Under the pieces are notes generated by a model. It made no database searches. It saw only the letters and a list, made by a program, of their open reading frames with translations, and was not told where the DNA came from. A program made the position numbers and the translations under genes. Source: an uncultured Candidatus Saccharibacteria bacterium (lineage in GTDB: Bacteria; Patescibacteriota; Minisyncoccia; Phycocordibacterales; Phycocordibacteraceae). From it: a stretch of 64,000 nt of DNA. Shown in pieces: positions 22,085 to 59,406 of the stretch. Each line of letters opens with the position of its first letter. Position 1 is the first letter of the stretch. The stretch lies in the NCBI GenBank assembly GCA_964446735.1, contig CAYUQB010000001.1, positions 111,270-175,269 of the forward strand. The letters are read 5' to 3'.

Positions 22085-22174
22085 GTATGGCATGACGAAT
22101 ATAGCATGTGGGCAGAGAGCGAAAAGATGACGCCGCCCAGCAGTGTGGGCGGCGTCTTCCTTGGGATCGGCTCG

Positions 22175-22786: not shown

Positions 22787-22842
22787 GGTGCAACCTCCCT
22801 TACCTATCGAAAGGGTATCAGAAATGCTTAGAAAAAGAATTG

Positions 22843-22913
22843 TCGGGCTGCCGGGAATCGAACCCGGTCTACATCCACCCCATGGACGCGTACTACCGGT
22901 ATACTACAGCCCG
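22843..22913 (-). tRNA. tRNA-Pro (anticodon GGG)
   Basis: C1:G72 acceptor typical of bacterial tRNA-Pro, anticodon loop AUGGGGU. Confidence 0.8.
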
Positions 22914-22937
22914 CTCGTGTTCGAACGTTCTACTACC

Positions 22938-23345
22938 CTACATTCTGAACACTTTCGTCGCAACGACGTACGTAAGTCCTGCGGTAAGGGCAGTCATAAG
23001 TGTTCCCCACGCCATGTCGACCAGTGCTCCAAGCAGCGGCCAATTGGGAAGTGTTGCGAGGTTCGTGAGGTCGTAGGTCATGTAGACGGTGAAACCAAGG
23101 ACAGCACCGCCCGCAATTGCTTTCGTGAATGATCGTTCCTTGAGCGCGCCGTCGAGCACAAAGTAGATGAGCGCAAGTGCGTAGAGGATATAGAAGAGTG
23201 CCGCTGCCCACAGAAGTGGATCAGGACGGAAGAACGCTCCGAAGGTGGACTGGTAGAACCCAGCTGCGATAACACCAAGCCAACTCATGTCGAGTGCTAT
23301 AGAAATAGGAAGCGCGAGGCAGAAGAGCTTGAGATAGGTGTTCAT
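22938..23345 (-). CDS. small integral membrane protein (135 aa, DUF2177-like)
   Basis: Four hydrophobic segments. Confidence 0.55.
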   Translation of the reverse strand: MNTYLKLFCLALPISIALDMSWLGVIAAGFYQSTFGAFFRPDPLLWAAALFYILYALALIYFVLDGALKERSFTKAIAGGAVLGFTVYMTYDLTNLATLPNWPLLGALVDMAWGTLMTALTAGLTYVVATKVFRM

Positions 23346-23941
23346 ACGGTAATAGTACCCTGGCCGAGTAGGAAGTTTTGGAGCTCTGTGCGCTTCTCGG
23401 GATTGTACTTGGCTTCAATGAGAAGCGGCCGAAGGGCGGTGTTCTGGAAATCAGGTCTGCTTGAGAGTTCGATCAGCTCATCGAGTGTGACGACGCGTGT
23501 ACTGACACGCTCGCCTGCGTCAGTAGAGGGAGCTCCAACATATCTGCAGTTACGAGCGACGAAGAAGTAGACCGCAAAGTCGACTCTGGTTTCGGGCTGA
23601 AAGCCGAACCAGTACGTAAGCTCATCGCTCTCATACCCTGTTTCTTCTTTGAGTTCTCGTCGGGCAGTTGTGAGAGGATCTTCCCCTTCCTCGATATGTC
23701 CTCCGGCGAACGTGGTGAGTGGGACACGTCCTGGTTGTTCGTCGTATCCGATGACTATTCTTCCATCAGGAAGCACCGGAATAGCGACTGCAGCATCCTG
23801 AGTGCGCTTTGCCTTCTCAAACGTGGCTGTGCTTCCATCAAAGAGTTCCTGTTCCCATTGGTATATATGAAAGTCTTTGCCCTTGAATACGCAGGTCGCA
23901 TGGGGAGGGATTGGTTGGCGACTTACGGGCCGTTCGATCAT
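23342..23941 (-). CDS. Nudix hydrolase (ADP-ribose pyrophosphatase-like, 199 aa)
   Basis: Nudix box GGHIEEGEDPLTTARRELKEETGY. Confidence 0.75.
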   Translation of the reverse strand: MIERPVSRQPIPPHATCVFKGKDFHIYQWEQELFDGSTATFEKAKRTQDAAVAIPVLPDGRIVIGYDEQPGRVPLTTFAGGHIEEGEDPLTTARRELKEETGYESDELTYWFGFQPETRVDFAVYFFVARNCRYVGAPSTDAGERVSTRVVTLDELIELSSRPDFQNTALRPLLIEAKYNPEKRTELQNFLLGQGTITV

Positions 23942-23990
23942 AGCGCCAGAGTAGCATTGAGCTCGCTTGTTTGGTATCGTCCGAAGATTA

Positions 23991-24064
23991 GGACGATTAG
24001 CTCAGTTGGTTAGAGCGTTCGCTTCACACGCGAAAGGTCACAGGTCCGAATCCTGTATCGTCCA
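23991..24064 (+). tRNA. tRNA-Val (anticodon CAC), unusual T-loop UCCGAAU
   Basis: Acceptor GGACGAT/ATCGTCC, anticodon loop UUCACAC, T-loop with C at position 55. Confidence 0.75.
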
Positions 24065-24065
24065 C

Positions 24066-24136
24066 CGGGCCGTGGTATAGTGGTATTACGTACGCTTCGG
24101 GTGCGTATAACCCGAGTTCGATTCTCGGCGGCCCGA
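24066..24136 (+). tRNA. tRNA-Pro (anticodon CGG)
   Basis: C1:G72 acceptor CGGGCCG/CGGCCCG, anticodon loop UUCGGGU, T-loop TTCGATT. Starts 1 nt after tRNA-Val. Confidence 0.8.
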
Positions 24137-24138
24137 CT

Positions 24139-24176
24139 AAATAACAAAGCCCCTTTCGGGGCCTTTGTTATTTCGC
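24139..24176. terminator. bidirectional terminator (AAATAACAAAGCCCC tttc GGGGCCTTTGTTATTT)
   Basis: GC stem flanked by complementary A-tract and T-tract. Confidence 0.6.
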
Positions 24177-24530
24177 CTCTACCACTGTAGTGAATCCCCC
24201 GTACGCAAAGCTTCGCATCTCCACCGGCATCTTCTGGTCCTTATACTTCTCATCGAAGTACGCCATGACCTTCTTATTCACTTGATCACGATGCGCTCGT
24301 GACTTGAAGACGATGTATGAGAAGAATACTACTTCTGTCGGCTTTGCTCCGATTAGTTTCGGGAAGGTAAGTTTCGAGTGCTTTGGTTTGAGATCTTCTC
24401 CGACGCATTCTTTATAGTCCAGCGCACCAAACTTCATCCAGATATCGCGTCCTTCGGTTGCCATCTTCTTATACACATCGAGCTTCCGCTTCGGAACGGT
24501 GAGCAAAAACCCATCAACGTACGTTGCCAT
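24168..24530 (-). CDS. DUF1428-like small protein
   Basis: Start refined to MATYVDGF... Confidence 0.5.
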   Translation of the reverse strand: MATYVDGFLLTVPKRKLDVYKKMATEGRDIWMKFGALDYKECVGEDLKPKHSKLTFPKLIGAKPTEVVFFSYIVFKSRAHRDQVNKKVMAYFDEKYKDQKMPVEMRSFAYGGFTTVVEAK

Positions 24531-24532
24531 GA

Positions 24533-24916
24533 TTATTCCTGTATTAGTGCTAAGAAGTTCCCGGCAGGATCCTTGAACCACGCTATGGCCGCGGGCCCTA
24601 GCTGAACTCCGTCGTTACGACAGATACCCTTCTCATCTGTTTTCATCATTGGTTCGTCGTACTGTTCGAACATAACGCCCTTGGCGGTAAGCTCATCGAC
24701 TGCAGAGTCGATGTCTTCTACTTCGAAGTTCAGGACGGTGAACGTTGCTGGAGCGTGATTCTGCTTCGGATAGATGAACACTCGTGTGTTAGGTAGCGTG
24801 AGCTCAAGTCCTTCGGGCATCTCTGCTGTTTGGGTGCCGAGTGTTTCTCCATAAAAGGCTTTTGCGGTCGGTATGTCATCGACAGAAAAGCTGGCGAATG
24901 AATTTTGGATCTTCAT
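24533..24916 (-). CDS. glyoxalase/VOC-family protein
   Basis: 127 aa with a paired beta-alpha-beta-beta-beta pattern typical of the VOC fold. Confidence 0.65.
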   Translation of the reverse strand: MKIQNSFASFSVDDIPTAKAFYGETLGTQTAEMPEGLELTLPNTRVFIYPKQNHAPATFTVLNFEVEDIDSAVDELTAKGVMFEQYDEPMMKTDEKGICRNDGVQLGPAAIAWFKDPAGNFLALIQE

Positions 24917-24971
24917 GCAAATAGTATAGCGCTTGTATATGAGCGGTGTATGAGCGTGCTACGGTGATGCA

Positions 24972-25082
24972 ATGAAATGGTTGAAGCGTCTTGGCATCGT
25001 AGGTTTCCTTTTCTTTACGGTGAAGGGATTGCTTTGGCTTGTGGTGCCTGCGGCGATTGTGTGGTTTGGGGTGAACAATTAG
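24972..25082 (+). CDS. putative 36-aa hydrophobic peptide MKWLKRLGIVGFLFFTVKGLLWLVVPAAIVWFGVNN (absent from ORF track)
   Basis: ATG at 24972 with a weak GGTGA upstream. Single TM helix. Confidence 0.2.
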   Translation: MKWLKRLGIVGFLFFTVKGLLWLVVPAAIVWFGVNN

Positions 25083-25273
25083 GTGGACCTCGACGGAGTA
25101 AGTTCGAACCAGTCAGCACTCGCACCACAGACACTCGACGTACAGCTCAAGCTTTTAGCCAGATTAGTCATCGATGTGATCAAACGTGATCGTGCGAAAA
25201 AGGGGATGGTTGAAACTAAGTCCCCAACGTCCTCGAAGCCCCTCATGTCCCTGGAGGTAACAACACAGACGAA

Positions 25274-25837
25274 CTAGTCTAACTCCGGCAGACCGAAACG
25301 AGAGAGGTAATTCGCAAATCGTTGAGAGAGGTTTTCGCGGAAAAGTTCGTTTACCGTTGCTAGATAAGAGTCTGGCAAATGAGCCTGGAGAATATCAACT
25401 GGGATCGTATAGAAATGTTTGAAGTCAATGACGAAGGCTGGGACGGCGAATTCGGTTCCGGATTTTAGAAAGTGGTACCGCGGAAATTCCGTGTTTCCTT
25501 CAAGTTTTTCCCGCTCCCTGCTACTCGAAAAGGAGCGCTTGCGGGTTCCCGATATATGCTCACCCTTTACGAAAGTCTCGTATACATACGCTGGGCAGAC
25601 TAGAACAGTCGGGATGATTTTGTCAGTTATCTCAGGCTCCGCTGTCCGTTCCTCGTGATCGTGTTGTAGATCGCAATCCTGACTCATCACAACGGCGTAG
25701 TTTATTTGGGCCTCGGATTCCAATTCCGTGACCTCTCGGTATAGAGTGGAAAAATGTATGTCTATCAGGATGTCTCCTTGACAAATTCTTTCCCCCTCTT
25801 TTATGGCGTATCTAGCTGCTACTCGGCTCGGTAACAT
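25274..25837 (-). CDS. hypothetical protein (187 aa), third gene of the candidate operon
   Basis: Start overlaps the 65-aa ORF. No recognisable family. Confidence 0.5.
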   Translation of the reverse strand: MLPSRVAARYAIKEGERICQGDILIDIHFSTLYREVTELESEAQINYAVVMSQDCDLQHDHEERTAEPEITDKIIPTVLVCPAYVYETFVKGEHISGTRKRSFSSSREREKLEGNTEFPRYHFLKSGTEFAVPAFVIDFKHFYTIPVDILQAHLPDSYLATVNELFRENLSQRFANYLSRFGLPELD

Positions 25838-26009
25838 ACTTAGTAGTTTTGAAGCTGGTTCTTCGAGTCAAATGTTCAACCTCTACGGAAAATGGATCCA
25901 CCTGCGTGGTGGGAACTTCAATATTCATTGCCGATGCGGTCATGATTACATCGTTTGAATTTTCTAGATTGCTATCGGTACTTGGGTTCATTTTGCTTTG
26001 TTTAGCCAT
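25812..26009 (-). CDS. small ORF (65 aa) overlapping both neighbours
   Basis: Overlaps the 257-aa gene stop by 22 nt and the 187-aa gene start by 26 nt, a translational-coupling geometry. Confidence 0.2.
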   Translation of the reverse strand: MAKQSKMNPSTDSNLENSNDVIMTASAMNIEVPTTQVDPFSVEVEHLTRRTSFKTTKYVTEPSSS

Positions 26010-26761
26010 TCTTTGAAGAGTTTTGTGATGCTCATATCAAACAGTCTATCTACATACTTGTTGTATCTTTCAATCACCTTGGAAATCGTTCCTTCTTCGG
26101 TTCCAGTTGGGAACTGGGAGTAGCAATCATAGTCAAGTATGAATTCCTTCCGGAGAACCTCCGCAGGGAAATCATTGTTCAAAAGGCCAAAATTGAAGGT
26201 GATATCAGCATCATCGTACTTCAATACTAACTGTCCCATTGCGCGGGCATTTTTTCCCTTAGAGGCTTTTATGAATTTCAAAGAACTTATAAGGTTTGAT
26301 GAAATATACCGGTCCCAGGTGAAATTTTCCTTGATCTCGTTAAGATTAATTTCGTTCCGATACCTAAGTCCGATACGATTGATCGTCTTGATCCCTGCCG
26401 CTTTTAGAAATGGCTCGAATATACACGACACGTCGTTGAGAAGGTCTTTTTTGTTTATGTACTTCTTGTACTCCATCACTATGTTGTCGGTAGATATTTC
26501 TAGTTTCTTGCTTTTTGTTGCGTTATGAAATATCCACACGGTCTTATGTAGGTCGCTGGTTTGAATCTTTTTGGGATTCATATTTACAACCATCGCATTC
26601 ACCATCGTGGTCGACTCCAGGTAGGGAAACGTTCCTTCAATACTCTTGTGAAATTCTTTAAGAAAATTTAGCTCAACTTTATCGAAGTCGAGTCGAAGGA
26701 AGACGCTACTCAAGTAATTACGCTTGTATGTTTTCGGCGTAGCCGGCAGTGATGTAGCCAT
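25988..26761 (-). CDS. TIGR04255-like sporadically distributed hypothetical protein (257 aa), AT-rich
   Basis: Motif ...INRIGLRYRNEIN... matches my recollection of the R-I/L-G-L-R-Y-I-N signature of that family. About 36% GC. Confidence 0.45.
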   Translation of the reverse strand: MATSLPATPKTYKRNYLSSVFLRLDFDKVELNFLKEFHKSIEGTFPYLESTTMVNAMVVNMNPKKIQTSDLHKTVWIFHNATKSKKLEISTDNIVMEYKKYINKKDLLNDVSCIFEPFLKAAGIKTINRIGLRYRNEINLNEIKENFTWDRYISSNLISSLKFIKASKGKNARAMGQLVLKYDDADITFNFGLLNNDFPAEVLRKEFILDYDCYSQFPTGTEEGTISKVIERYNKYVDRLFDMSITKLFKEWLNKAK

Positions 26762-26813
26762 TGAGATGTAACTCTATAAGTATACGCAGTATCAGATCCT
26801 TTTCCACCGTGTG

Positions 26814-26838
26814 GGAGGTTCGAATCCCCTTCGGTCGA
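26814..26838 (+). other. tRNA-like 3' fragment (T-arm GGAGGTTCGAATCCCCT + acceptor-like TCGGTCGA)
   Basis: Canonical GGTTCGAATCC T-loop with no upstream D-arm or anticodon arm. One A-C mismatch in the T-stem. Confidence 0.3.
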
Positions 26839-27193
26839 ATGGCTGATGCAGCTCCTAAAAATATCCTTTGGCTGCTGGGCGAAAACTCAAACTATGCGCC
26901 CGGCGCATAGTGTGGACCACAACAGAACGATTTTCGAATCAAGATCGTGCCGGCGGCAGCAGTTGTTCACAAGTCGAAGTCAGACAAATCGTGGGCAGCA
27001 CTTCACGATGAACTATTCGCCGACGCGCAGTGGGAAGCACCTCCACCTGGTGCCGGTGACTATCTGCTGAATAAGTATGTGCTGAACTAGACGCCGAAGC
27101 GGCGCAAGGAAGCTCGTGTGGCTTTCAGGAACTGCGGGTTTGCCATGATACGGCTGGCGATGACGGTACTACTCGCTGAGAAGCCCCCTGCTA

Positions 27194-27760
27194 TTAGTAA
27201 GGATTTTGACGCAGTCTCTTGAGGGAAGAGATTATGTAAAGTCCAAGGAACAGTAGTATCACTATCATGACTGCCAGAAATATTTTCTTGATCAGTGCAT
27301 ACAAATTCTCATGGTACTTTTGCTCATACGGAAATGGCGATACCGGTTCAATACTGAACATTTTACTGCTGAGGTCGGAAGTGAATACCCACTCGGGCTC
27401 GTCAGTTACGAACACAACCTTCAGTTCCTCGTTCGGATAGATGGAGGCGAACTTTACAACAGTTGTCTCTTCACCGGGATAAACTATTTCCGAGCCTCCT
27501 TTATCTCCTTGCACTTGTATATCTTTCCGTTCGATCTTCTTGTCTATCTTGAAAACGAGATCGCCAGTCTGTCTGCTGCTGTTGTAAATGTGAACCCTAT
27601 TGTAGGTCTTATCCAGGAACGAGATGTGATCGGTGAGATAGAGCAATCTTGGTTGGAGATTGAAGAAGGACACGATACTCGGCTGAAATATGACAAACAT
27701 AGTCCCGATTGCCGTCGTTACGAGCGCATTCACGACAATATTTGCGAGACTCGTCTTCAT
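27194..27760 (-). CDS. hypothetical membrane-anchored protein (N- and C-terminal TM)
   Basis: Start likely MKTSLANIV. AT-rich. Confidence 0.5.
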   Translation of the reverse strand: MKTSLANIVVNALVTTAIGTMFVIFQPSIVSFFNLQPRLLYLTDHISFLDKTYNRVHIYNSSRQTGDLVFKIDKKIERKDIQVQGDKGGSEIVYPGEETTVVKFASIYPNEELKVVFVTDEPEWVFTSDLSSKMFSIEPVSPFPYEQKYHENLYALIKKIFLAVMIVILLFLGLYIISSLKRLRQNPY

Positions 27761-28169
27761 GCATTTTTGTGTTGTGGACCGATTTGGGGGCACGTTCGAA
27801 CTGGACGTAAATCGGACGATGGGCTGACGGAAATACTGTTTAGAATCGACGAAAGTTCGAACCCTACTGAACAGTCATGCCCAACCAGGCAATGGTCGAA
27901 AGAGGAGTTACGGCAGATTATGCTCCGCGTCAGAAAAGATAATCCTGACTGGAAGCCAACCTGGGAAGCAGCTCCGCCACCCCGCAAGGAAAACCCGGGA
28001 TGGGAGGCCATTCGACGGATTAATCGAGAGCGAATAGCGGACAGGGCGAAGAAAGAGTTTGAGGAGATGTCCTCGAAGTCCACTGATGAGGATGAGTGTG
28101 AGGCAGCCGGGTTCTCCGATGTGGGCGGTGCTGACTAGCCCACTTCAGATGGGCAAAGGCTTGCCAGTA

Positions 28170-29351
28170 CTAGAGTTGTGGAGTGGAAGTTGCCTTTCGT
28201 GTCCTTATATACTCAACTTGCTCTTTTCCTACTTGCATTGCCTGGGAAGTTGTCCCTGAAACCGTAGCCACAAAGATGAATTGGCTGGATTCATCTAAGA
28301 GGTAGATCCTCGAATTAGCGTCAAGGGGTATTTCTGTTTTAAGTTTCCACTCTATTTCACGAGGTTGTCCACCTCCGATTGCAAAAGGAATTCTCGGGAA
28401 TATTACCCACCCGAATAGGATGATTGAACCAAGTATTGGTACAACACCTTGCCTAAATATCATTTCGTAGGAATTGACGTCAGTAAAATCAAACAACTTC
28501 AGATTTACTTCTGCTTTTGGGAAAGTCCAGTTTAGAAAAAAATACATGGTTAGAACGAAACCGAACAACCATGAGAACACGAGTGCCGAGGTGAGCGAAG
28601 TATTTGAAAGAGAATTGAAGTCAAACAAATTTACTCGAAGCTTGTAGTACGCATATACCGCCACCGCTAAGTAGCCAGAAATGATAATAAAATCTACCAA
28701 AAAAAGAGACAAATACATCCATGTTGGCTTCTTTGGTTTCGGGGCCACATCTTCCTCGGTGTTTGTGTTCTGCTCAGTGGTGGCGGGAGATACTGCATCT
28801 TTTTTCCTTGGAATCCAACTGTAGATGATACAGACCGCGATAATGCACAGATACAGCAAAAAAATGTACGAAAATATGTATATCGTATTCTTGATCAAAT
28901 AATCAACCGATCCAGACACAATATTTAATGAGGAGATGAAGTCGCCCAGGAAATCATAATTCGGTATTACTGCTTTGAAATATAGATGATCAGCAGATAT
29001 TGGAGCTTGATACCGTCCTAGATTGAAAAAGGTCGTCACTGCAAAGCTTAGACCAAAAATAGAAGATATTATATATATAAGTGTTAATCCGCGTTTTCTG
29101 AAATGATTTAGGTCAAAGAAGTCTTTGAAGGGAAGCGCTTTGAATGCGATCCAGGATACGACCAGACCTATCGCAATCGAACACATTGAGAATATGCCCG
29201 CTATCACATACCTGGCGTTTAGAATATCGAAACTAGCTATTCCGAATCTTCCGAGGTAGGCATTTATCGTGAGGAATCCGAATAGATACAGAATCGATCC
29301 TCCTGCCACCAGAAGCTGTAGGATGTTCTTGAGAGTCTCTAATTTAGGCAT
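28170..29351 (-). CDS. hypothetical polytopic membrane protein (393 aa), AT-rich
   Basis: At least 10 hydrophobic segments and a central Thr/Glu/Pro-rich loop. Confidence 0.6.
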   Translation of the reverse strand: MPKLETLKNILQLLVAGGSILYLFGFLTINAYLGRFGIASFDILNARYVIAGIFSMCSIAIGLVVSWIAFKALPFKDFFDLNHFRKRGLTLIYIISSIFGLSFAVTTFFNLGRYQAPISADHLYFKAVIPNYDFLGDFISSLNIVSGSVDYLIKNTIYIFSYIFLLYLCIIAVCIIYSWIPRKKDAVSPATTEQNTNTEEDVAPKPKKPTWMYLSLFLVDFIIISGYLAVAVYAYYKLRVNLFDFNSLSNTSLTSALVFSWLFGFVLTMYFFLNWTFPKAEVNLKLFDFTDVNSYEMIFRQGVVPILGSIILFGWVIFPRIPFAIGGGQPREIEWKLKTEIPLDANSRIYLLDESSQFIFVATVSGTTSQAMQVGKEQVEYIRTRKATSTPQL

Positions 29352-29438
29352 TCTCTTGAGGGTTGTTCATCTGCTGACGTAAGAGCCGGGACCGTGGCAT
29401 GCTCGCCGTGACAAAAACTGTACTTATGTTATAATTTG

Positions 29439-29511
29439 TGGACCGTACAGGATTCGAACCTGCGACCCTCTCATTGCAAATGAGATGCTCTACCAACTGA
29501 GCTAACGGCCC
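29439..29511 (-). tRNA. tRNA-Ala (anticodon TGC)
   Basis: Acceptor GGGCCGT with G3:U70, anticodon loop UUUGCAA, T-loop TTCGAAT, A73. Confidence 0.85.
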
Positions 29512-29521
29512 AAGGGTTATG

Positions 29522-29869
29522 TTATAGCACGTTTCCCTCGCCAAGCATATCTATTTTCGCCGCCATAATGAAGTCATTTTCCGAGAGGCCTTTGATGCTG
29601 TGAGTCGTTAATTTCACCTCCACTTTCCCCCACGAAAGCTTGATATCCGGGTGGTGCCATTCCTCCTCTGCTATCTTCCCCACCGCGTTTACAAACATAA
29701 GCGCACTTTTGAAGTCCGGAAAACGAAACACCCGATGAATGACGGTGGATTCGTCATTCAGGCTCCAGAGCGGTGCATGTTCATGGAAATCCTTTGCCTG
29801 CTCTGGGGTGAGTGCAGGGAAATCCGGACTCTCACACGGAACACACCTCTTCTTTGCAAGCTCGTCCAT
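29522..29869 (-). CDS. pterin-4a-carbinolamine dehydratase (PCD/DCoH) family
   Basis: ...EEEWHHPDIKLSWGKVEVKLTTHSIKGLSENDFIMAAKID... matches the PCD signature. Confidence 0.7.
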   Translation of the reverse strand: MDELAKKRCVPCESPDFPALTPEQAKDFHEHAPLWSLNDESTVIHRVFRFPDFKSALMFVNAVGKIAEEEWHHPDIKLSWGKVEVKLTTHSIKGLSENDFIMAAKIDMLGEGNVL

Positions 29870-29871
29870 AC

Positions 29872-30891
29872 CTAAATGCGCGCTGGCTCATGCCCGAGTG
29901 AAAGCTCAACCAGATGCGAGAGGAAATCTGGAAACTTTACTCCCACTGCAGCAAGAGACTTTGGTAAGAGCGACTCACTCGTAAGTCCCGGGAGTGTATT
30001 AGTCTCAAGGAAGTAGATACCACGCGGAGAAACAATGAAATCGCTGCGGGAATAGTGGCGAAGTCCTAGTGCTTCGTGCATGACTTTCGCCTGTCGCATC
30101 AGCTCACTACTCTCAGAACGACTGAACCGCCCCGGAACAATCTCGGTAGTCGTACCGTCGTACTTAGCCTGTCGATCAAAGAAGGATGCTGTGGGAGGCG
30201 AGACAATCTCAATGGGAGGGAGCGTGTAAAGCGATTCACCACGTATGTGCTCAACCACCCCAACCGTCGCTTCTTTGCCGCGGATCAACTCCTCAACCAG
30301 AACCCCTGAAGAGCCTGACAGAATAGCTTGTATCGCTTCCTGTACCGGCAGATACCCACCAACGATGGATACCCCAACCGAGGAACCAAGCGATACCGGC
30401 TTCACCACTACTGGCTGATGGAAGGTGCGAATAATATGGTGCACCGCAGCATCAACATCACTTCCCGGCTCTACCAAATGATACTTAGGAGTCATCAGTC
30501 CCGCGTGAAGTGCTCGTTCCTTGGTCAGCACCTTATGCATCGCAATGGACGACGTAAGTGAATCAGCGCCCGTGTACGGGACCCCGTATCGTTCAAGGAG
30601 GCGCTGTACCGTCCCATCTTCTCCATATTCACCATGAAGCCCGATAACAACCGTGTCGACGGTAGGGAGCACCCGTTCCGGAGCAGTCGGAACGCCACGC
30701 TCATGCCAGATGCCCTGGCGATCTATATAAATATCTCGAACCGTATACCGTTCCTCCGGAAGATGCGTGAGAATCGCATGCCCCGTCTGGAGCGATACAT
30801 CATGCTCGCTCGAAGGTCCACCCCGCAGGACTCCGACAACGGTGCCACGCATGTAGGTGAGTATATCAGGAACTATCGCGGCCACTTCCAA
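29872..30891 (-). CDS. ddl: D-alanine--D-alanine ligase
   Basis: ATP-grasp motifs and N-terminal VGVLRGGPSSEHDVS. The true start may be the internal MRGTVVGV at about 30852. Confidence 0.85.
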   Translation of the reverse strand: MEVAAIVPDILTYMRGTVVGVLRGGPSSEHDVSLQTGHAILTHLPEERYTVRDIYIDRQGIWHERGVPTAPERVLPTVDTVVIGLHGEYGEDGTVQRLLERYGVPYTGADSLTSSIAMHKVLTKERALHAGLMTPKYHLVEPGSDVDAAVHHIIRTFHQPVVVKPVSLGSSVGVSIVGGYLPVQEAIQAILSGSSGVLVEELIRGKEATVGVVEHIRGESLYTLPPIEIVSPPTASFFDRQAKYDGTTTEIVPGRFSRSESSELMRQAKVMHEALGLRHYSRSDFIVSPRGIYFLETNTLPGLTSESLLPKSLAAVGVKFPDFLSHLVELSLGHEPARI

Positions 30892-43199: not shown

Positions 43200-43709
43200 T
43201 TACTGCCCCACCTTCACCAACTCCACTTCAAAGATGAGCGTGGCGTTTGGAGGAATGACGCCACCTGCACCCTGGGAGCCATACGCCATATCGGGAGGAA
43301 TCACGAGTCGACGCTTACCACCTTCTTTCATACCCACGAGTCCCTCATCCCATCCGGTAATAACCTGGCGAGTACCGAGCTGGAAGGTAAACGGCTGTCC
43401 GTGCCTGGCTGATGCATCGAAGACGGTACCGTCTGGAAGTGCACCTATGTAATGGACGGTAACGATATCGCCAGACTTTGCTGCTGCTCCAGTTCCCTCA
43501 ACGGTATCAACAACCGTAAGAGTCGTAGGAAGTGGTCCGGACAAAGGTGCGACGTTTTCTGAAGTAGGTGCCATGTTCAAGTTCGCCTCTGATACCTGCT
43601 CGTCAGTAACAGCGCCAAACGGACGGAGCAGATTTGGTCCTAGAAACAGGAAGCCGACTCCTATGACGACGGCGAGCGTAACAGCTACAGCAGTTGCAGT
43701 GACGTTCAT
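43200..43709 (-). CDS. FKBP-type peptidyl-prolyl cis-trans isomerase (secreted/anchored)
   Basis: ...GDIVTVHYIGALPDGTVFDAS...FQLG...VITGWDEGLVGMKEGGKRRLVIPP..AYG... is a canonical FKBP domain with an N-terminal hydrophobic segment. Confidence 0.8.
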   Translation of the reverse strand: MNVTATAVAVTLAVVIGVGFLFLGPNLLRPFGAVTDEQVSEANLNMAPTSENVAPLSGPLPTTLTVVDTVEGTGAAAKSGDIVTVHYIGALPDGTVFDASARHGQPFTFQLGTRQVITGWDEGLVGMKEGGKRRLVIPPDMAYGSQGAGGVIPPNATLIFEVELVKVGQ

Positions 43710-43742: not shown

Positions 43743-44129
43743 TCACTGGGCACTCCCGTCAAAGAATCCAACGACCTGAGGCCCATTGGCGTAGCGCATA
43801 AGGAGGCGCTCTTCCCCGCCTGTAGTAAGGACCAGCTGGCCACGCGAATCAATGGACAATTCCCCGGGCGCCCCTTCGGTGTAGTGTAGTGCACTTCGTA
43901 GACGCTCTGAGGGCACCGACTTGAGATACCGCACGAGGGGAGGCACAGCGCCACCCTCTGGAAACTGAACATCAAGTGCGTCCAGAAATGACTCCATCGA
44001 ATCGGTACCAGGTTCTGCTTCTGGAGTGTTTGGTCTTTGCGATGCCTCAATGGCTGACTGAAGCTCTCCGCGCCACTCCTTCGGCGTCTCCGGCTCCTCG
44101 CGTACCGTAAGTCGTCGTAGTCTCTCCAT
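43743..44129 (-). CDS. hypothetical protein (128 aa) tightly coupled downstream of the large ATPase
   Basis: Start 2 nt after the ATPase stop. Confidence 0.45.
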   Translation of the reverse strand: MERLRRLTVREEPETPKEWRGELQSAIEASQRPNTPEAEPGTDSMESFLDALDVQFPEGGAVPPLVRYLKSVPSERLRSALHYTEGAPGELSIDSRGQLVLTTGGEERLLMRYANGPQVVGFFDGSAQ

Positions 44130-44131
44130 AC

Positions 44132-46861
44132 TTAGGTGAGATACCGCGCACGAATAGCATCCTCGACCGGCCCACGCTCGCGTCCATACGTGAGATAGGA
44201 AAGCTGACGCAGATCGTCGATCTGTGCCTCGTTCCCCTTCACCGGTGGCAGGGCATGAATGTTAAAGGGCTTCTGTGGTACGCCATGCGCAAGAAGTTTC
44301 ACGTAGGCATTAAAGTTTTCGATTGACGTGAAGTCTCCGGCTTTAAAGACTGGCGCATACTGCTTCTCAAAGAATTCTCCATCCTCTTGGCCGACACGGA
44401 ATACTGCCATAGAACCCACGTTGCCGAAAACAGCATTGCGAATCTTCTCATCAACTTGGGAGAGGAACTGATGCGCAATGGTGAGCGAGAGCTTGTATTT
44501 GCGAGCTTCCGAGAGAATACCCGGAATCGAATCGGTTGTAATGTTCTGGAACTCGTCGATATAGAGGTAGAAGGGCGGGAATGTTCCCCGTGGATCATCC
44601 GCACGAGAGAGCGCTGCCATGAAGAGCTTCCCTACCAAGATGAGACCGAGCAGGTTTGCATTACGTTCTCCGAGGCGACCTTTGGAGAGATTGACCAGAA
44701 GTATCTTCTTTCCATCGATCACCTCTCGGAAATTAAACGAGGAGTGTTGCTGACCAATGATAGGCCGCATGAAGTCGTTTGCCGTGAAGTCGTCGAACTT
44801 GTTCGTGATGTACGGAACGATGTTGGCAAGAGAGGCTTCCCCTTCTGCCTGAGTAGCGATCTCCTGCCAGAATTGATTGACGATGGGGTTATTACTGCGA
44901 GAAAGCTTCAAATCCCGGAATGCTTTATTCGCAAGCACCCGCCCAATATCCATTAAGGTAGAGCCGGAAGCAGGATCTTCCATGACCAGCAGCGTGGCAT
45001 TGCGGAAGTACTGCTCGAAGGCCGGACCCATAGACTCCGGTACATCCCCGTACAGTCGACGGAAGATGGCGAGCATCTCGTTAACGATGAAGGTTTTCTG
45101 CTCCGGGTGCGCAGAATCGTATTCAAGGAGATTAAGACCAAACGGTCGTGAGAGTTCCGCAGGATCAAAGTAGATGACATCCTCGTAGCGTTCCGGAGGG
45201 ATGTACGAAAGTACATCGAGAATGTCGTTCCCGTGCGGATCAATGAAGCACACTCCCTCGCCTGCTTGTATGTCCTGGGCGATGAGCGTCTTCATGAATG
45301 ACGTCTTACCCGTACCCGTCTGGCCGATGACATATAGGTGCCGAAGCCTATCATCCGGTGATAGACGAGCCTCTGCATGTACGCCTCGATAGTCATTGGT
45401 GCCAAGCACGACTCCTTCTTTCGGGAGTGTTGACGGAGCGGGCGCTTCGGTGAAGCGTGACTGTGCGAGGTGTGGAGCTGACTCGATGCCGCGTGGCGGG
45501 AAATGATAGAGCGCAGTCAGTTCGCGAAGTGAGAGTGGAAGTGCGCTGGTGCGCGAGAACAGTCGGAATGTAAAGTTATGAAATAGCTTCTTGGCGTCAC
45601 TCTTCCCTGCCTCCTTGAACTCGAGCCGGTTTCCAATAGTGTTCTCGAACTGGTTGAATGCTGCTTCTAGTTCAGAACGAATGGAGCGAGCTTTGGCAGC
45701 ATCACGAGAAGAAACCACAATACGAATATTTGTCTCGACAATGGGTGCGGTGATCTTTCGTTCCACTTGCTCAATCGCCACCTTGTCTGCATTCGTAGGA
45801 TCAAGCTTCTTTTTAGATGAGCCAAACAGACCAATCGCCTCACGCGCAAGATCACCAGCAAAGGTTTCTGGGAGATTAAATGCACGGTACCTATTCTCCC
45901 CCTTACGAAGTTCCGCAAGAATGCGTCGGTAGTGCTCAACATACCGGTGACCAGTGGGACGCATGATGATCTGAAGTGAAGCTCCTTCGCCTTCTGGATC
46001 GATCTTTGCAAACGCATTCAATACCGAGTTCAGAGGATCGTAGTCAAAGTCTCCGTAATCCTTGAGCGGAAGCATGGGACGATCCTTAAGCGTTGCGTGG
46101 GAGCCAAGCGAAATACCGTCCTCGGCGAAGATGTTGTAGTCATTCGGCTGTGCCGCAACCCGTGCGCCAGGAAAGATGGCGAGCAACTGTTTTTCAAACA
46201 GATCTCGCTTACTATGCGCAACTGCCGCATAAAAACGGAGCGTCGGTGCATCCATCGGAACGGCAAGCTCAAGCGTCAGATATGCTGGCTCGTCTTTCTC
46301 TGCGTGCTCAACTGAAAGCATTCCCGCGTAGAACTGTTCCATTGCGGAGATGAGCTCCTTGAGCGGCTTGGTGCGGTTCTGAGAATCATCTCCTGCGGTG
46401 GGCTCTGGAAGCGCAATTTCATACAGGGTCATGCGGAGTGCCTTCCAGGTGGGCTGGCCCTCAGGAAGTCCAGACGGGCTCATGCCGGAAATTACGTACT
46501 GCACCAAAAACCTATGGAAATCATCCTCCAGGTGCGGGTTGTTTAGCTTCTCCAACACTGCAAAGGCATTTTTAATGCCTTTTTCCTCCATCAACACCTT
46601 GAGTTCGCGTATGGTCTCGTCGTTTGCTTCAGGCGCAAGCCCTTTCGCAAGTTCATGAGATGCTTCGGGTGAAAGTCGATACTCAGGAGCCAGCACGTGT
46701 TCAGCTGCCGTGCGATGTGCAAGCAGTCGTTCTTGTGCGACTTCTTCGCGCGCTGGTTGCTCACGCATCTGGCGTAGCTCAGCTTCTTTAAGCGCAACCT
46801 GCTGACGCAAGTATGCGAGTTCATCCTCGGGATTAGCGAGCGGACGAAGCGGGCCTTCCAT
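44132..46861 (-). CDS. VirD4/TraD-like (T4CP / FtsK-HerA superfamily) P-loop ATPase with long N-terminal helical extension
   Basis: Walker A VIGQTGTGKTSFMK followed by DPHGN, Walker B YLYIDEFQNI and ...LTIAHQFLSQV.... No TM helices seen. Start refined to MEGPLRPL (approximate). The 1004-aa track ORF overlaps purC. Confidence 0.65.
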   Translation of the reverse strand: MEGPLRPLANPEDELAYLRQQVALKEAELRQMREQPAREEVAQERLLAHRTAAEHVLAPEYRLSPEASHELAKGLAPEANDETIRELKVLMEEKGIKNAFAVLEKLNNPHLEDDFHRFLVQYVISGMSPSGLPEGQPTWKALRMTLYEIALPEPTAGDDSQNRTKPLKELISAMEQFYAGMLSVEHAEKDEPAYLTLELAVPMDAPTLRFYAAVAHSKRDLFEKQLLAIFPGARVAAQPNDYNIFAEDGISLGSHATLKDRPMLPLKDYGDFDYDPLNSVLNAFAKIDPEGEGASLQIIMRPTGHRYVEHYRRILAELRKGENRYRAFNLPETFAGDLAREAIGLFGSSKKKLDPTNADKVAIEQVERKITAPIVETNIRIVVSSRDAAKARSIRSELEAAFNQFENTIGNRLEFKEAGKSDAKKLFHNFTFRLFSRTSALPLSLRELTALYHFPPRGIESAPHLAQSRFTEAPAPSTLPKEGVVLGTNDYRGVHAEARLSPDDRLRHLYVIGQTGTGKTSFMKTLIAQDIQAGEGVCFIDPHGNDILDVLSYIPPERYEDVIYFDPAELSRPFGLNLLEYDSAHPEQKTFIVNEMLAIFRRLYGDVPESMGPAFEQYFRNATLLVMEDPASGSTLMDIGRVLANKAFRDLKLSRSNNPIVNQFWQEIATQAEGEASLANIVPYITNKFDDFTANDFMRPIIGQQHSSFNFREVIDGKKILLVNLSKGRLGERNANLLGLILVGKLFMAALSRADDPRGTFPPFYLYIDEFQNITTDSIPGILSEARKYKLSLTIAHQFLSQVDEKIRNAVFGNVGSMAVFRVGQEDGEFFEKQYAPVFKAGDFTSIENFNAYVKLLAHGVPQKPFNIHALPPVKGNEAQIDDLRQLSYLTYGRERGPVEDAIRARYLT

Positions 46862-46970
46862 CACTGTAAGTATAAAGTACGAAAACGTTTGTTTCTGCGT
46901 GAGGCGAGGATAAAAGAGTTGCCGGCAGCCACACATACGCGTAGCTGCCGGCAGTACTGCTTGGAGCAGA

Positions 46971-47897
46971 TTAGCTTCGAGGTACAGGGAAGGCTTTCGT
47001 TCCCCTGAAGACGAAGTTGGCGTTGACCCACTCCCGCACCTGTGCGGCCACTTCCGGAAAGCGATCCGAGAGGTCGGCGGCTCGGCCCAACTGCAACTTC
47101 GTGAGTTCAGCGGAGGCCCCCTTACGAAAGCCCTCCTTGCTCGCATGTTCCCCGTTCACGAGCAGACGGCAGGATTCGGCGTCGATGACGTCACCGATCC
47201 AGAGCTGGCCGTGCTCGTCGAAGCCATACTCGATCTTCATGTCGGGGAACGTGATGTCGACTCCCGCAAGCTCGCCCACAAGCTCCCAGGCGTACTCGAG
47301 TACTTCGTACACCGCCTGGTTAGTTGCGGCAATGACCGGGAGCAGTTCACGTGTTCCGACGATCGGAAAGGTTTCCAGCAAATTGAGCCGGAGGAAGTAG
47401 CAGCCATTCGTGCACGGCAGATCCGGCCGGTAGAGGTAGACGCCCTCGTCGGTAATCTGCATGAACGGGTCGTCGCACGGAAGCTCATAGCTCCCCTTGC
47501 TACCCGGCCACGTACGCCCCTTGGTCTTGAGGAAGAATTCGACGCAGGCCGTTTCGAAGGGTGTTCCCTCTTTGACCTTGGGGTTGCGCTTGAGGTATGA
47601 CCCCCAAGCGAGTCCCCGGGTCACGACCTCGAGCAGGATCATATCGAGCTCGAGGGCAATGAACGACGTCGGGCTGTCCTGCTCGCGATACGCGACCGGG
47701 AAGCCGCAGAACTTGAGCAGCTCGAAGACGTTGACCGTCGTACGAGTCGAGATCTCTGCCTTCCCTGCGATGACTTCGTGTCGTGCGCCGTCGCCGGCGG
47801 TGGTGTCGTCGAGATTCCGGAGCCGGACACGACGTTCGAACGGGTGATCGACGCGTTCGACCGCCTTCGTTTTGCCTCGTGCAAGAACCTGATTCAT
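46971..47897 (-). CDS. purC: phosphoribosylaminoimidazole-succinocarboxamide (SAICAR) synthase-like
   Basis: N-terminal ...ARGKTKAVERV...DDTTAGDGARHEVIAGKAEIS...NVFELLKFCGFPVAY parallels PurC. GC-rich. Confidence 0.7.
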   Translation of the reverse strand: MNQVLARGKTKAVERVDHPFERRVRLRNLDDTTAGDGARHEVIAGKAEISTRTTVNVFELLKFCGFPVAYREQDSPTSFIALELDMILLEVVTRGLAWGSYLKRNPKVKEGTPFETACVEFFLKTKGRTWPGSKGSYELPCDDPFMQITDEGVYLYRPDLPCTNGCYFLRLNLLETFPIVGTRELLPVIAATNQAVYEVLEYAWELVGELAGVDITFPDMKIEYGFDEHGQLWIGDVIDAESCRLLVNGEHASKEGFRKGASAELTKLQLGRAADLSDRFPEVAAQVREWVNANFVFRGTKAFPVPRS

Positions 47898-47908
47898 GGT
47901 GCGTTCCT

Positions 47909-48397
47909 TCAGTCTTCGACGGTCGTTGGGACCGACTCGGTTTGACGTTCACGCCACGCGTTGAGACGGGCGCGTACTTCATCGTTGGATAGCGCGAGAA
48001 TGGCGGCCGCATAGAGGCCGGCATTTTTCGCGCCGTTGATGGCCATGGTGCCCACGGGAATACCAGCAGGCATCTGTACGATCGAGAGCAGACTGTCCTG
48101 GCCATTCAAGGCCTTGCTTTGGATGGGCACGCCGATGACCGGCAGGCTGGTGAGCGCTGCGGTGACGCCCGGCAGGTGCGCGGCGCCGCCCGCTCCCGCG
48201 ATGATGACGCGGAAGCCATGGCGCCATGCCTTACTGGCGAACTCGTAGGCGCGACCCGGCGTCCGGTGCGCTGAGATCACCTTGGCCTCGTATGCGATGC
48301 CTAGTTCCTCGAGGACAGCCATCGCTTCCTTCATGACAGGCAAATCTGAACGGCTGCCCATGATGACCGCGACCAGCGGGGTATCGATTCTTTCCAC
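47909..48397 (-). CDS. purE: N5-carboxyaminoimidazole ribonucleotide mutase
   Basis: ...[17 protein letters not shown]...ISAHRTP...[13 protein letters not shown]... is canonical PurE. Confidence 0.85.
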
Positions 48398-56736: not shown

Positions 56737-59406
56737 CTACCGGCTTGCGCCAAATCCGGTGTATGCAGGCTTCACGCGATAATTGGCAGTACCAGGAGCG
56801 ATAAAGAGGTCAGCTGGTGATACCAACCGTTCACCGACACCAAATGACCAGCCGTAGCGGGCACTCTGGAAGTGGCCAAGCGCTACATAGATATTGTTTG
56901 TGTAGGTTGCGTAGGTGCTCACGGACGTTCCGTCAATAATATTTTTGTCGATGACGTACCGGACACCTGCCTTGCTGTTAAGGGTCATCGAGGCCGCCTT
57001 ACTGCTTCCGATAATGGTGTTATTTGCAATACGAACGGTGCCACTCATGCCTCCCCAGTCTGCAAGCACTGCGGTCGTATTTTTTGCACCATCGAAGACG
57101 TTGTTGGTAAGCGTCACGTTCGATGAACGTTCCATCGTAAAGGCAATGTTGGAATCACGGACCGTGTTCCCTTCCACAGTGACATTATTTGAGCTCTGGT
57201 AGACCGTAAGGCCGTTACCATGAGTTGAGTTGCTGTCCGTCATGGTATTCCCGACCATGCGGCCATTGGTGACGGTAGCGAAGTAAAGACCGGTGCGTGC
57301 AATGTTGCGAAGAGTGTTACCCCGCGCAACCACATCCTTACTACTCCCCACCTGAATGCCACGCATGTTGCCGAGCGTATCGTGAACAGAATTGTTTTCG
57401 ATGACGAGATTCGTCACCTTTGAGAGCGCGATACCACCCATGTGGGTACTTTGGGTAAGCGACACATCGTTATTCTCGATCCGAATGTCTTCAGTATCGT
57501 TGTAGAGGAACTTCACGATACCAGCACCCTCACGAGCGCCATCACCGGTCTGCTTCCACACTTTGAATCCGGAAACGACGACGTGGTTTGCGCTACTGAG
57601 GTCGATACCATAGGAGCGTACTGAGTAATTCACAACACCATTGGGGTTAGCCCCACCGAGTGGCCAGACGTAGAGTGTGTTCGTTGACGAGTCGAAGTAG
57701 TACTCACCAGCAGTGTCGAACACTCCTGCCGTACTCGCGTTCACGACAGTGTAGCGCGTATCTCGATCGTCATACGGGGTGAACGCCTCGGAAAGGGTCA
57801 CGGTCGAGCCAACCAAGCGCACAATCTTGCGGATGGAGATCTCGTTCGGGACCCCCCATACATAGATATAGGCACCGGTAAGAAGCGTGCCACCAAGACT
57901 TGCGAAGCGTGTGTCGGTGATTGAGGTAGGTGTCACCTTTTCCTTTATCACAGCAAAGAACGTCTCAGGGTTCTGGTAGAACCGATTTGCAGATGCGGGG
58001 GTCTGCGCAGGAAGAATGACCTGATCTCCTTGGGTTAGGTTGAGCCGTATCTCCGGCTGATCCGAAAGGAAGGACGGGACGGTGATTCTGGTTTTGTAGA
58101 TGTTTGCCCAATTCGGATTTCCCTCACAATCAGCGGCTGAACGGCACTTCGCAAAGGTCGTAATTGGCTGTGACCCATCGATGATTGCCTTACCGGTTCC
58201 CCATCCCGTTCCTTTCAGTACTACTGGTTGCGAAGCGGTTCCGCTTCCATTCACTCTGATACTGCCATAGTACGTGACGCCACCCTTAAGCATGACGACA
58301 TCGCCTGGTTTAAGAGTCGTCTTTGCAGGATTGCCTGTTGCTTCTGGGTCTCCCGGAGCGTGCTTCCACGGGGAAGTCTGGGTTCCAGAGTTTGTATCAG
58401 CCCCCGCTGCGAAGTCGACATAGTAGGAACCGACAGTTGGTGTTGCAGGGGTCGTGGTTGCGGGGAGCGGAGTCGGAATTGGCGTCGGGACCGGTGTTGG
58501 ATTGTTACTAGGAGGGGTAGTAGTGGCCGGTGGCTTGGGTGCGTTCGGCGTACTGGATGCTGTTGGGGTATTTGGCGTGCTTGGCGATGTCGGTTGAGTG
58601 GTGCCTGGAGCAGGCGACGTACCAGCCACAGTTACAGTTACAGATCGCGTCACACTCTTATTCGCATTACCACAGGTGAGAGTATAAGTGGTTGTCTGCT
58701 TCGGACTAACCGTTCGTGCTGATCCGTTTCCTGACCATCCGCCAGATGCCGTGCAGTACGTTGCATTCGTTGCCTTCCACAGAAGGGTCGTAGCTTGTCC
58801 AGGAACAATGTTGGGATGCGAAGCTTTAAGCTCGAGCGTGACATCATCGGTGACAGTGACGGTGACTGTCTTCATCACGCTCGATGTGGCGTTCGTACAC
58901 GTCATGGCATAGGTGGTCGTTTGGAGCGGCGAAATGGTGAAGCGGCTGCCGATACGGCCACGTGGACCTTCCCATCCTCCAGAAGCGGAGCAGGTCACCG
59001 CATTTGTCGATTTCCATCCAAGTGTCGTGCTCTGCCCTGCGATAAGTGTTTGACGGATCGCCGAGAACGTGAGCGTGGGACTCGTGGTCGCGATACTCAT
59101 GTCTGCGTTGAGAACCGCTGCCGTGAAGCGCCCTACATATCCAGTCCCTTCAGTGAGATTGAGCGGTGCCAGCACAATGTCGGCATACGCTTCTTGCAGC
59201 ACAATAATGGCTTCTTTAGTGATCTTTCCAAAGTATCCAGTAATTTCCTCAACAAATAGGCCTTGGTCCTTCAAAAAGCGTTGGAGTGTAGAGACTTCTT
59301 CTCCGCGTGAGCCTTCCTGAAGGCCCGGCTCAATAGCAAGAACGCTTATGGGTTGCAATGCGAACGCGAACAGAAGCACGTACACGAGTAGGGTGCGGTA
59401 CAGCAT
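56737..59406 (-). CDS. large secreted surface protein: N-terminal peptidoglycan-binding domain, Ig-like repeats, Pro/Thr linker, parallel beta-helix
   Basis: Signal peptide, PG_binding_1-like ...VSTLQRFLKDQGLFVEEITGYFGKIT..., duplicated TLGWKSTNA/TLLWKATNA modules, PT-rich linker, NN/GN-x-V/I beta-helix rungs. Confidence 0.7.
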   Translation of the reverse strand: MLYRTLLVYVLLFAFALQPISVLAIEPGLQEGSRGEEVSTLQRFLKDQGLFVEEITGYFGKITKEAIIVLQEAYADIVLAPLNLTEGTGYVGRFTAAVLNADMSIATTSPTLTFSAIRQTLIAGQSTTLGWKSTNAVTCSASGGWEGPRGRIGSRFTISPLQTTTYAMTCTNATSSVMKTVTVTVTDDVTLELKASHPNIVPGQATTLLWKATNATYCTASGGWSGNGSARTVSPKQTTTYTLTCGNANKSVTRSVTVTVAGTSPAPGTTQPTSPSTPNTPTASSTPNAPKPPATTTPPSNNPTPVPTPIPTPLPATTTPATPTVGSYYVDFAAGADTNSGTQTSPWKHAPGDPEATGNPAKTTLKPGDVVMLKGGVTYYGSIRVNGSGTASQPVVLKGTGWGTGKAIIDGSQPITTFAKCRSAADCEGNPNWANIYKTRITVPSFLSDQPEIRLNLTQGDQVILPAQTPASANRFYQNPETFFAVIKEKVTPTSITDTRFASLGGTLLTGAYIYVWGVPNEISIRKIVRLVGSTVTLSEAFTPYDDRDTRYTVVNASTAGVFDTAGEYYFDSSTNTLYVWPLGGANPNGVVNYSVRSYGIDLSSANHVVVSGFKVWKQTGDGAREGAGIVKFLYNDTEDIRIENNDVSLTQSTHMGGIALSKVTNLVIENNSVHDTLGNMRGIQVGSSKDVVARGNTLRNIARTGLYFATVTNGRMVGNTMTDSNSTHGNGLTVYQSSNNVTVEGNTVRDSNIAFTMERSSNVTLTNNVFDGAKNTTAVLADWGGMSGTVRIANNTIIGSSKAASMTLNSKAGVRYVIDKNIIDGTSVSTYATYTNNIYVALGHFQSARYGWSFGVGERLVSPADLFIAPGTANYRVKPAYTGFGASR

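Follow-up and report, generated by a model that had tools for sequence, protein, structure and literature searches.

The two type IV secretion ATPases, VirD4 and VirB4, are among the closest described systems to the gene treated here. Type IV coupling proteins (T4CPs), such as TrwB of R388, VirD4, TraD, DotL and Cag-beta, join a domain with Walker A and Walker B motifs, an inserted helical domain and a TraG-D_C region to an N-terminal membrane domain, and VirB4 (TrwK of R388) consists of an N-terminal alpha/beta domain followed by a RecA-like motor. In this paper we examine a gene for an ATPase of 909 amino acids (aa) in a stretch of 64,000 nucleotides (hereafter the window) from an uncultured Candidatus Saccharibacteria bacterium (contig CAYUQB010000001.1, positions 111,270 to 175,269; coordinates below are those of the window). 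Its product shares all three parts of the T4CP motor, but instead of the membrane domain it possesses a 340-aa domain with a fold like that of the VirB4 N-terminal domain and a fused helical module, and the order of its alpha/beta domain and its motor is that of VirB4. We consider it probable that this product is a soluble variant, made by gene fusion, of the coupling-type ATPases with a DUF8128 domain, which form a branch of the FtsK/HerA superfamily.

VirD4-type genes, which probably include this family, have been counted in Patescibacteria. A survey of 3035 genomes found 5713 VirD4-type homologues in 2918 of them, with only 148 of these homologues located near virB4, and found VirB4 itself, of which Patescibacteria have their own clade, in 2417 genomes (Quinonero-Coronel et al. 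2025, PMC12102498). The 'T4CP homologues' of this survey are the same near-universal chromosomal VirD4-like genes away from virB4, provided that they are identical with the DUF8128 family, which we assume; the survey gives no description of the N-terminal domain, of membrane-anchored versus fused forms or of neighbouring genes. In the essential type IV secretion system (T4SS) cluster, no recognisable coupling protein was seen (Wang et al. 2023, PMC10633639). Neither of these two papers describes the N-terminal domain or the small partner proteins presented below, and our literature searches for PF26449 or DUF8128 found nothing.

Related ATPases are also known from phages. The name 'DNA translocation operon' was given by Pathria et al. 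(2012, PMC3357382) to phage genes that are dispensable in the laboratory, and the same study described orf201 of phage 0305phi8-36, a coupling ATPase and BLASTP homologue of SPO1 gp27.4, as having no transmembrane domain.

Results

The ATPase gene and its motor domain

The ATPase gene lies at 44132..46861 (stop included) on the minus strand, as do all genes and features given with coordinates below, tRNA genes apart. The mechanical open reading frame (ORF) extends to 47146, and with its first 95 codons it runs into the 3' end of the purC-like gene (46971-47897); because of this overlap, and because the lengths of the homologues (905-920 aa, 100% coverage) fit a protein of 909 aa, we place the start at the ATG at 46861. 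A protein identical to the 909-aa product is on record in the protein database, encoded on a contig of 516,752 bp. The ORF is one gene without a frameshift, and the N-terminal region belongs to it. Between purC and the ATPase start there is a strong terminator-like hairpin of 15 pairs with a T-rich tail (46920..46953), a consensus match only, which suggests that the ATPase may start its own transcript. A TATACT hexamer is situated about 8 nt 5' of the ATG, right after this hairpin (46862-46919), and this position may point to a leader that is very short or lacking.

A note made earlier from the sequence alone had described this ORF as a P-loop ATPase with four motifs, and all of them are present: Walker A GQTGTGKT (aa 513-520; 45302..45325), the IDPHG element (aa 540-544), Walker B YLYIDEFQN (aa 765-773; 44543..44569) and TIAHQFLSQ (aa 794-802). 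In a full-length alignment of 82 homologous sequences, which reaches down to 29% identity, G513, G516 and K519 of Walker A, P542 and G544 of the IDPHG element, D769 and E770 of Walker B, and Q798 and Q802 are invariant. As judged from these sequences, the motor is intact and strongly constrained, with its catalytic motifs invariant. Between the window and its nearest relative, the ATPase is 84% identical and thereby surpasses TGT (80.5%), the ECF sigma factor (70%) and the FKBP-type isomerase (59%) in conservation. Two measurements of the earlier note require correction, namely that Walker A, which had been assigned to the C-terminal 350 aa, starts 397 aa from the C-terminus, and that the ATPase fold begins at about aa 484, which leaves an N-terminal region of about 480 aa where 560 had been given.

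The motor, as delimited by hhalign, Foldseek and Pfam, occupies aa 484-909 (44135..45412) and comprises a nucleotide-binding domain, an inserted helical domain and the TraG-D_C region. The inserted helical domain, which separates Walker A from Walker B (aa ~588-716; 44714..45100) and was recognised from the secondary structure of the model and from the hhalign alignment to TrwB, is the equivalent of the TrwB all-alpha domain, for the alignment spans this region and the Pfam model TrwB_AAD_bind matches 47 of 52 diverse members of the family (best 1.7e-13). These 52 members underlie all family-wide Pfam and NCBIfam counts. TraG-D_C was found in 50 of them, DUF87 in 49, T4SS-DNA_transf in 26 (best 7.8e-12), AAA_10 in nine and CagE_TrbE_VirB (PF03135) in none; NCBIfam models for TraD/VirD4 match 48-52 and those for VirB4 12-17 members. 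In the window ATPase itself, DUF87 (26.6 bits, cut-off 23.2; aa 507-544 only) and TraG-D_C (22.9 bits, cut-off 22) exceed their cut-offs, and FtsK_SpoIIIE (E 0.015) stays under its own.

Profile and structure comparisons agree with these counts. Searched against PDB sequences, the family profile retrieves TrwB (2.3e-7) and DotL (4.6e-6), and hhalign aligns the motor with TrwB at a probability of 96% (E 3.9e-9) over 265 columns (aa 498-805), in an alignment that begins before Walker A, crosses the helical insertion and reaches the HQ motif. The corresponding probabilities are 12% for TrwK alone and 80% (E 1.4e-5) for a VirB4 profile. The AlphaFold (AF2) model of the whole protein, which is globular throughout (mean pLDDT 89.2, pTM 0.77), is matched by Foldseek to TrwB over ~440 columns, with a template modelling score (TM) of 0.65 (TrwB-normalised) and a root-mean-square deviation of ~5 Å, and also to HerA (4d2i, E 1e-10), DotL and Cag-beta. 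By sequence and predicted fold, the C-terminal half belongs to the FtsK/HerA superfamily and is of the VirD4/TraD/TrwB type; the resemblance to coupling proteins and to the FtsK-HerA clade that had been proposed earlier is borne out by hhalign, Pfam, NCBIfam and Foldseek alike. No membrane helix was found in the 909-aa protein, where the mean Kyte-Doolittle hydropathy over 19 residues reaches at most 1.53; the earlier statement that N-terminal membrane helices are lacking holds, and the globular model is in keeping with it.

The N-terminal region: a DUF8128 domain and a fused small protein

The N-terminal region had been regarded as a single extension of undescribed architecture. It proves to be composite: aa 1-135 are a small-protein module that has been fused on, and aa ~140-480 (45422..46444) form a domain whose fold resembles that of the VirB4 N-terminal domain. 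The latter is a catalogued family, PF26449 (DUF8128), which is present in thousands of proteins from Patescibacteria and of which a phage homologue was discussed in 2012; its limits rest on precomputed Pfam annotation, a domain model, Foldseek and hhalign. The acidic character ascribed to the whole region applies to the first ~135 aa, which are helical and contain 25 D+E against 16 K+R, but not to aa 140-480, which form a compact alpha/beta domain with the conserved motif ELTALYHFPP (aa 447-456) at its end.

When aa 130-482 were modelled on their own, from the window fragment aligned to full-length homologues, the alpha/beta domain was predicted with very high confidence (pLDDT 93, pTM 0.91). 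TrwK/VirB4 chains take the first 13 places among its fold matches in the PDB (E 6e-6 to 2.5e-4, probability 1.0; TM 0.38-0.45, query-normalised), and the next fold family, HemQ, follows at an E of 2e-3 and a TM of 0.19, which leaves VirB4 as the sole confident fold match for this domain. TrwK/VirB4 is likewise the best PDB match of the whole-protein model (~896 columns, E 4e-13), with a low TM because the domain orientations differ.

The first part of the N-terminal region, hereafter the N-module (46457..46861), is acidic and helical and contains the motif EKGIKNAFAVLEKLNNPHLEDDFHRFLVQY (aa 93-122). Among 88 representatives of the family, 66 carry a single N-terminal membrane helix right before DUF8128 and most of the others are truncated; the clade of the window has, instead, a helical extension of 125-155 aa without a membrane helix. 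Clustering of the neighbours at the 88 loci revealed a protein of ~140 aa that is encoded directly upstream of the membrane-anchored members, and a hidden Markov model (HMM) built from the 17 upstream proteins of this cluster matches aa 12-121 of the window ATPase at 34.5 bits (E 1.8e-12), a score that none of 5000 shuffled sequences attained (best shuffle 9.4 bits). The N-module is fused to the ATPase in 45 of the 88 loci and encoded as a separate gene on the same strand in 23, with gaps of mostly -4 to 151 nt; it was undetected in the other 20, about half of which have no upstream sequence. In the alignment, the separate proteins end exactly where DUF8128 starts in the fused form. One member (P0158) contains the N-module, two membrane helices, DUF8128 and the motor in succession, and is an intermediate form. 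Because aa 1-135 are homologous to the separate protein just upstream of the membrane-anchored members, the soluble form arose by fusion of a separate small-protein gene together with loss of the membrane helix. Among Pfam families, PDB sequences and solved structures, and phage proteins, the N-module has no match.

Two further observations concern N-terminal extensions and upstream genes elsewhere in the family. A T4SS_pilin match (PF18895, E 1.8e-5) occurs in one member, which may be P0158, with its two hydrophobic helices in the N-terminal extension. At six loci (L063, L064, L068, L072, L083 and L085), another conserved small protein of 150-190 aa is encoded just upstream of membrane-anchored ATPases; it ends in '...WLKIIPGVNKFFLEQEAKIKTD...' and is unrelated to the N-module.

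Distribution of the family

The family is large. An indexed search returned 2933 homologues, of which the best 120 are all full-length and 69-84% identical to the window ATPase, and an exhaustive search of representatives at 50% identity gave 20775 matches at E<=1e-3 and 5320 at E<=1e-30. Homologues stem almost exclusively from Patescibacteria (Parcubacteria/Paceibacterota, Kaiserbacteria and others), and in a collection with one genome per species there are at least 598 matching stretches, the listed titles being nearly all Patescibacteria of many lineages. Database names include 'putative Type IV secretory pathway VirD4 component', 'DUF87 domain-containing' and 'TraM recognition domain-containing'. 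Precomputed Pfam annotation assigns PF26449 and PF01935, with or without PF12696, to these proteins including the identical one, and the succession of DUF8128 and P-loop motor can be aligned over the full length of the family. The window ATPase is a typical member of this family, which is catalogued but uncharacterised, and represents a fused, soluble variant of it. Some members (P0166, P0171, P0176-P0179, P0181, P0182, P0185, P0191 and P0202) are ~1100-2000 aa long and have a long P/A/E-rich, apparently disordered C-terminal tail, which ends in a conserved 'L.PGEVYVDE.GNVIIGE'.

Relatives in phages

The PHROGs family phrog_5156 (function unknown) matches aa 170-903 of the ATPase (6.9e-68) and covers both domains. 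A tblastn search of phage genomes retrieved gp156 of phage G (E 3e-35, aa 172-857), gp27.4 of SPO1, and homologues in CP-51, SP8 and ~35 other Bacillus-group phages. For the DUF8128 profile, hhalign gives 98.4% (E 9.6e-15) against gp156 and 97.2% (E 3.9e-11) against SPO1 gp27.4, and Foldseek against viral models (BFVD) finds gp156 (E 1.7e-41), a protein of phage JL (E 2e-37, TM 0.60), A7KUX5 (E 1.9e-27) and the VirB4-like gp155 (E 6e-13).

Like the window ATPase, the phage coupling ATPases (SPO1 gp27.4, phage G gp156 and 0305phi8-36 orf201) combine a DUF8128-like N-terminal domain with the motor and have no membrane helix; they differ in being only ~22% identical to it and in missing the N-module. 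They also differ in their neighbours. In SPO1, gp27.3 is a Replic_Relax (relaxase-like) protein and gp27.9 an actin-like partition protein, and in phage G the ATPase gene has gp155, which is VirB4-like (P-loop_TraG, AAA_10), and gp153, which is TrbL/VirB6-like, as neighbours, whereas the ORFs scanned in the window include neither a MOBC-type relaxase nor a VirB6-like or actin-like gene. By analogy, the phage contexts support a coupling-protein mode of action for the family.

The gene downstream of the ATPase

The ATPase stop codon TAA (44134-44132) is followed, after 2 nt, by the ATG (44129) of a 128-aa ORF (43743..44129), which the earlier note had taken for a coupled partner. The adjacency stands, but conservation does not. 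A search of 5.8 billion proteins returned, as the sole match, the ORF's own 84-aa version, called from an internal ATG on the contig that carries the identical ATPase (L001). The only homologue is found in the nearest relative (P0002, locus L089), whose ATPase is 84% identical: a syntenic ORF of 127 aa, also 2 nt after the stop, that is 37% identical over 71 residues (BLASTP E 8e-5) and 29% globally. This synteny supports the start of the 128-aa ORF, and the ORF has the codon-position pattern of coding genes (G+C content decreasing in the order first, third, second position). In both the window and L089, it stands alone between the ATPase and the FKBP gene.

Relatives with ATPases of 70-83% identity display a longer arrangement at this place: the ATPase, a large partner, a protein of ~100 aa with DUF5663, and FKBP. 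The large partners measure 492-1151 aa as called (four more, taken as longest ORFs at other loci, 799-1045 aa), belong to no Pfam family, usually contain hydrophobic segments, have long P/A/S/H-rich stretches, and in most cases have predicted membrane segments. They evolve fast, with 25.5% identity where the ATPases share 82%. An HMM of modules from six large partners matches two collinear stretches of the 128-aa ORF, aa 41-69 and 90-121, at 8.7 bits (E 8.4e-5 for one target), and one of 5000 shuffles scored as well; an HMM of whole large-partner proteins gave no signal against the ORF. We read the 128-aa ORF as a seemingly miniaturised, fast-diverging descendant of the large partner, possibly still expressed. 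It is at most an accessory, neither a core component nor a family-wide partner, and in other lineages the gene downstream of the ATPase is ndk-like or something else. A DUF5663 gene, a large-partner gene and a second copy of the ATPase were sought in the window, and none was found. A likeness of the tail motif 'PGEVYVDExGNVIIGE' to APGELSIDSRGQLVL in the 128-aa ORF was not better than in shuffles and was dropped.

At several loci (L002-L007, L009, L011, L030, L032 and L074), the ~100-aa protein, which is acidic and helical and contains DUF5663 in some cases, is always situated between the large partner and FKBP.

Genomic setting in the window

Our Pfam scan covered ~21 main ORFs of the window, on either side of the region from ~8 to 31 kb. 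Upstream of the ATPase are purE and purC, and downstream follow a gene for an FKBP-type prolyl isomerase with a hydrophobic N-terminus (43200..43709; Pfam FKBP_C 2.8e-37), TGT, uvrB and a histidine kinase; uvrA, uvrC, leuS and the ECF sigma factor are encoded elsewhere in the window. The downstream position of FKBP is the same in L002-L006 and L089, which makes it a conserved neighbour in this clade; we give it as genomic context.

The purC and purE genes (46971-48397) have a G+C content at third codon positions of 0.74-0.76, against ~0.55 in other genes checked, and in most relatives holin_4_2/Na_Ca_ex genes precede the ATPase in their place; the pair may be a recent acquisition. Six tRNA genes are found at 19.5-29.5 kb, around and within a stretch of low GC (0.45-0.48 at 24-30 kb, against ~0.53-0.56 elsewhere), and the window may contain an island at ~19500-30000. 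In the leucyl-tRNA synthetase ORF (5059-7902; 947 aa), the editing domain is followed by an unusual insertion, a NUDIX domain (Pfam 6.3e-11, aa 408-501). An 889-aa protein (56737-59406) combines a peptidoglycan-binding domain with a right-handed beta-helix and possibly acts at the surface or on the cell wall.

Discussion

A soluble, fused coupling-type ATPase of the DUF8128 family would, by analogy, form a ring, probably a hexamer, that would use ATP to recruit a substrate, DNA or protein, and push it toward a membrane channel, with the VirB4-like domain and the N-module possibly serving as docking or regulatory surfaces. Because the ATPase stands alone among housekeeping genes here, its channel partners may be encoded elsewhere, for example by a type IV system of Patescibacteria, or the motor may be put to another use.

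Several results weigh against this reading. The NCBIfam TraD and VirD4-like matches of the window ATPase are sub-threshold, the best at 44.2 bits against a cut-off of 366, so that, unlike those of T4CPs, its scores lie far under curated cut-offs. The likeness of DUF8128 to VirB4 is one of fold, at the TM of 0.38-0.45 given above: a profile search of PDB sequences returned no link between the two, and hhalign against a VirB4 profile gave a probability of 0.1%, with a profile that is shallow (members 56-84% identical to TrwK). Because no link to VirB4 was found at the sequence level, we treat the likeness, which is of moderate strength, as a resemblance of predicted folds and not as proven homology. 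As to the partners that the earlier note had suggested looking for, no gene for VirB4, VirB6, TrbL, pilin, relaxase, integrase or defence was found among the ~21 ORFs scanned outside ~8-31 kb, and the relaxase and mating pair formation genes associated with T4CPs are missing from the vicinity of the ATPase among these ORFs. Finally, T4CP homologues are commoner in Patescibacteria than VirB4 (96% versus 80% of genomes), and that of S. epibionticum is not essential though the T4SS is, and may be exapted (PMC12102498). The hit set of that survey probably includes the DUF8128 family, an identity that is assumed. Because the T4CP homologue is dispensable and more widespread than VirB4, the motor need not work with a T4SS, and its distribution and non-essentiality favour some independence from it.

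This leads to the alternative that survives best, although we hold it to be unlikely: a motor independent of any T4SS, i.e. a chromosomal housekeeping translocase like FtsK, HerA or the archaeal Ced ATPases, with DNA uptake or nucleotide salvage, chromosome handling or repair as conceivable roles. Such a motor would be at home in the housekeeping setting of purC/purE, FKBP, TGT and uvrB, to which the window adds uvrA and uvrC, and at the loci of other lineages that have ndk-like, adk-like and secY-like genes (assigned by eye from the sequences) close by, and the rarity of T4CP homologues near virB4 (PMC12102498) points the same way. Weak matches to CedD in 43 of the 52 members and to HerA likewise agree with it, but they cover mainly the P-loop. 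Against this alternative, the nearest relatives in sequence and fold are conjugative coupling proteins, and the informative neighbours, those in phage G and SPO1, are VirB4-like, VirB6-like and relaxase-like. The window ATPase does belong to the same superfamily as HerA and FtsK/SpoIIIE, as seen from the DUF87 match at the P-loop and the Foldseek match to HerA, but it has no HAS-barrel, no NurA partner and none of the membrane, linker and gamma domains of FtsK, and its N-terminal domain matches VirB4 and not HerA. With these defining domains missing, and with no partner gene among the scanned ORFs, an assignment to FtsK or HerA proper was rejected.

It is quite improbable that the protein is a true VirB4-family ATPase, that is, a motor of T4SS assembly or pilus biogenesis and not a coupling protein. 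This explanation draws on the best PDB match of the whole protein, which is to TrwK/VirB4 with the same order of two domains, and on an N-terminal domain that matches VirB4 only. It conflicts with motor profiles that favour TrwB/TraD and with the absence of PF03135 from all 52 members. Phage G has a separate VirB4-like gene adjoining the homologue, VirB3, VirB6 and VirB8 are not adjacent to the ATPase, and Patescibacteria possess their own VirB4 clade (PMC12102498).

A part in anti-phage defence (as a HerA/mad8-like ATPase) or an origin as a remnant of an integrated phage or conjugative element is very improbable, since the PADLOC mad8 match (1.4e-12) and the weak HerA matches that would speak for it concern the motor only and, the homologues in phages notwithstanding, the scanned ORFs include no methylase, nuclease, integrase or relaxase nearby, the GC at the locus (0.52-0.58) is not clearly different from that of the flanks (0.53-0.58), and, unlike patchy defence islands, the gene keeps its synteny and a high degree of conservation among housekeeping genes in many species; the defence reading was rejected for want of such partners among these neighbours.

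Conclusions

Beyond the preferred reading of the locus as a soluble, fused DUF8128 coupling-type ATPase, a wider proposal may be put forward tentatively. The DUF8128 ATPases could be a third lineage of type IV secretion motors, of old origin, in which an N-terminal domain shared with VirB4 and a VirD4-type motor preserve the ancestral architecture behind the membrane-anchored coupling proteins. They would then be a near-universal core gene of Patescibacteria with small helical partners, separate or fused, that may act without a T4SS, for example to take up DNA or other macromolecules from the host cell. We regard this proposal as doubtful at present.

The significance of these observations lies at the level of the family, in the VirB4-like domain, the fusion and the link to phages, the locus in the window itself being an ordinary member. 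The genomes of Patescibacteria are tiny; nearly all of these bacteria nevertheless keep this large ATPase, which in the window is better conserved than TGT, a tRNA-modification enzyme. Testable handles on its role are now available in the VirB4-like N-terminal domain, the fused small partner and the occurrence of the same protein in conjugation-like modules of Bacillus phages, and these three observations bear on how VirB4 and VirD4, the two ATPases of type IV secretion, diverged.

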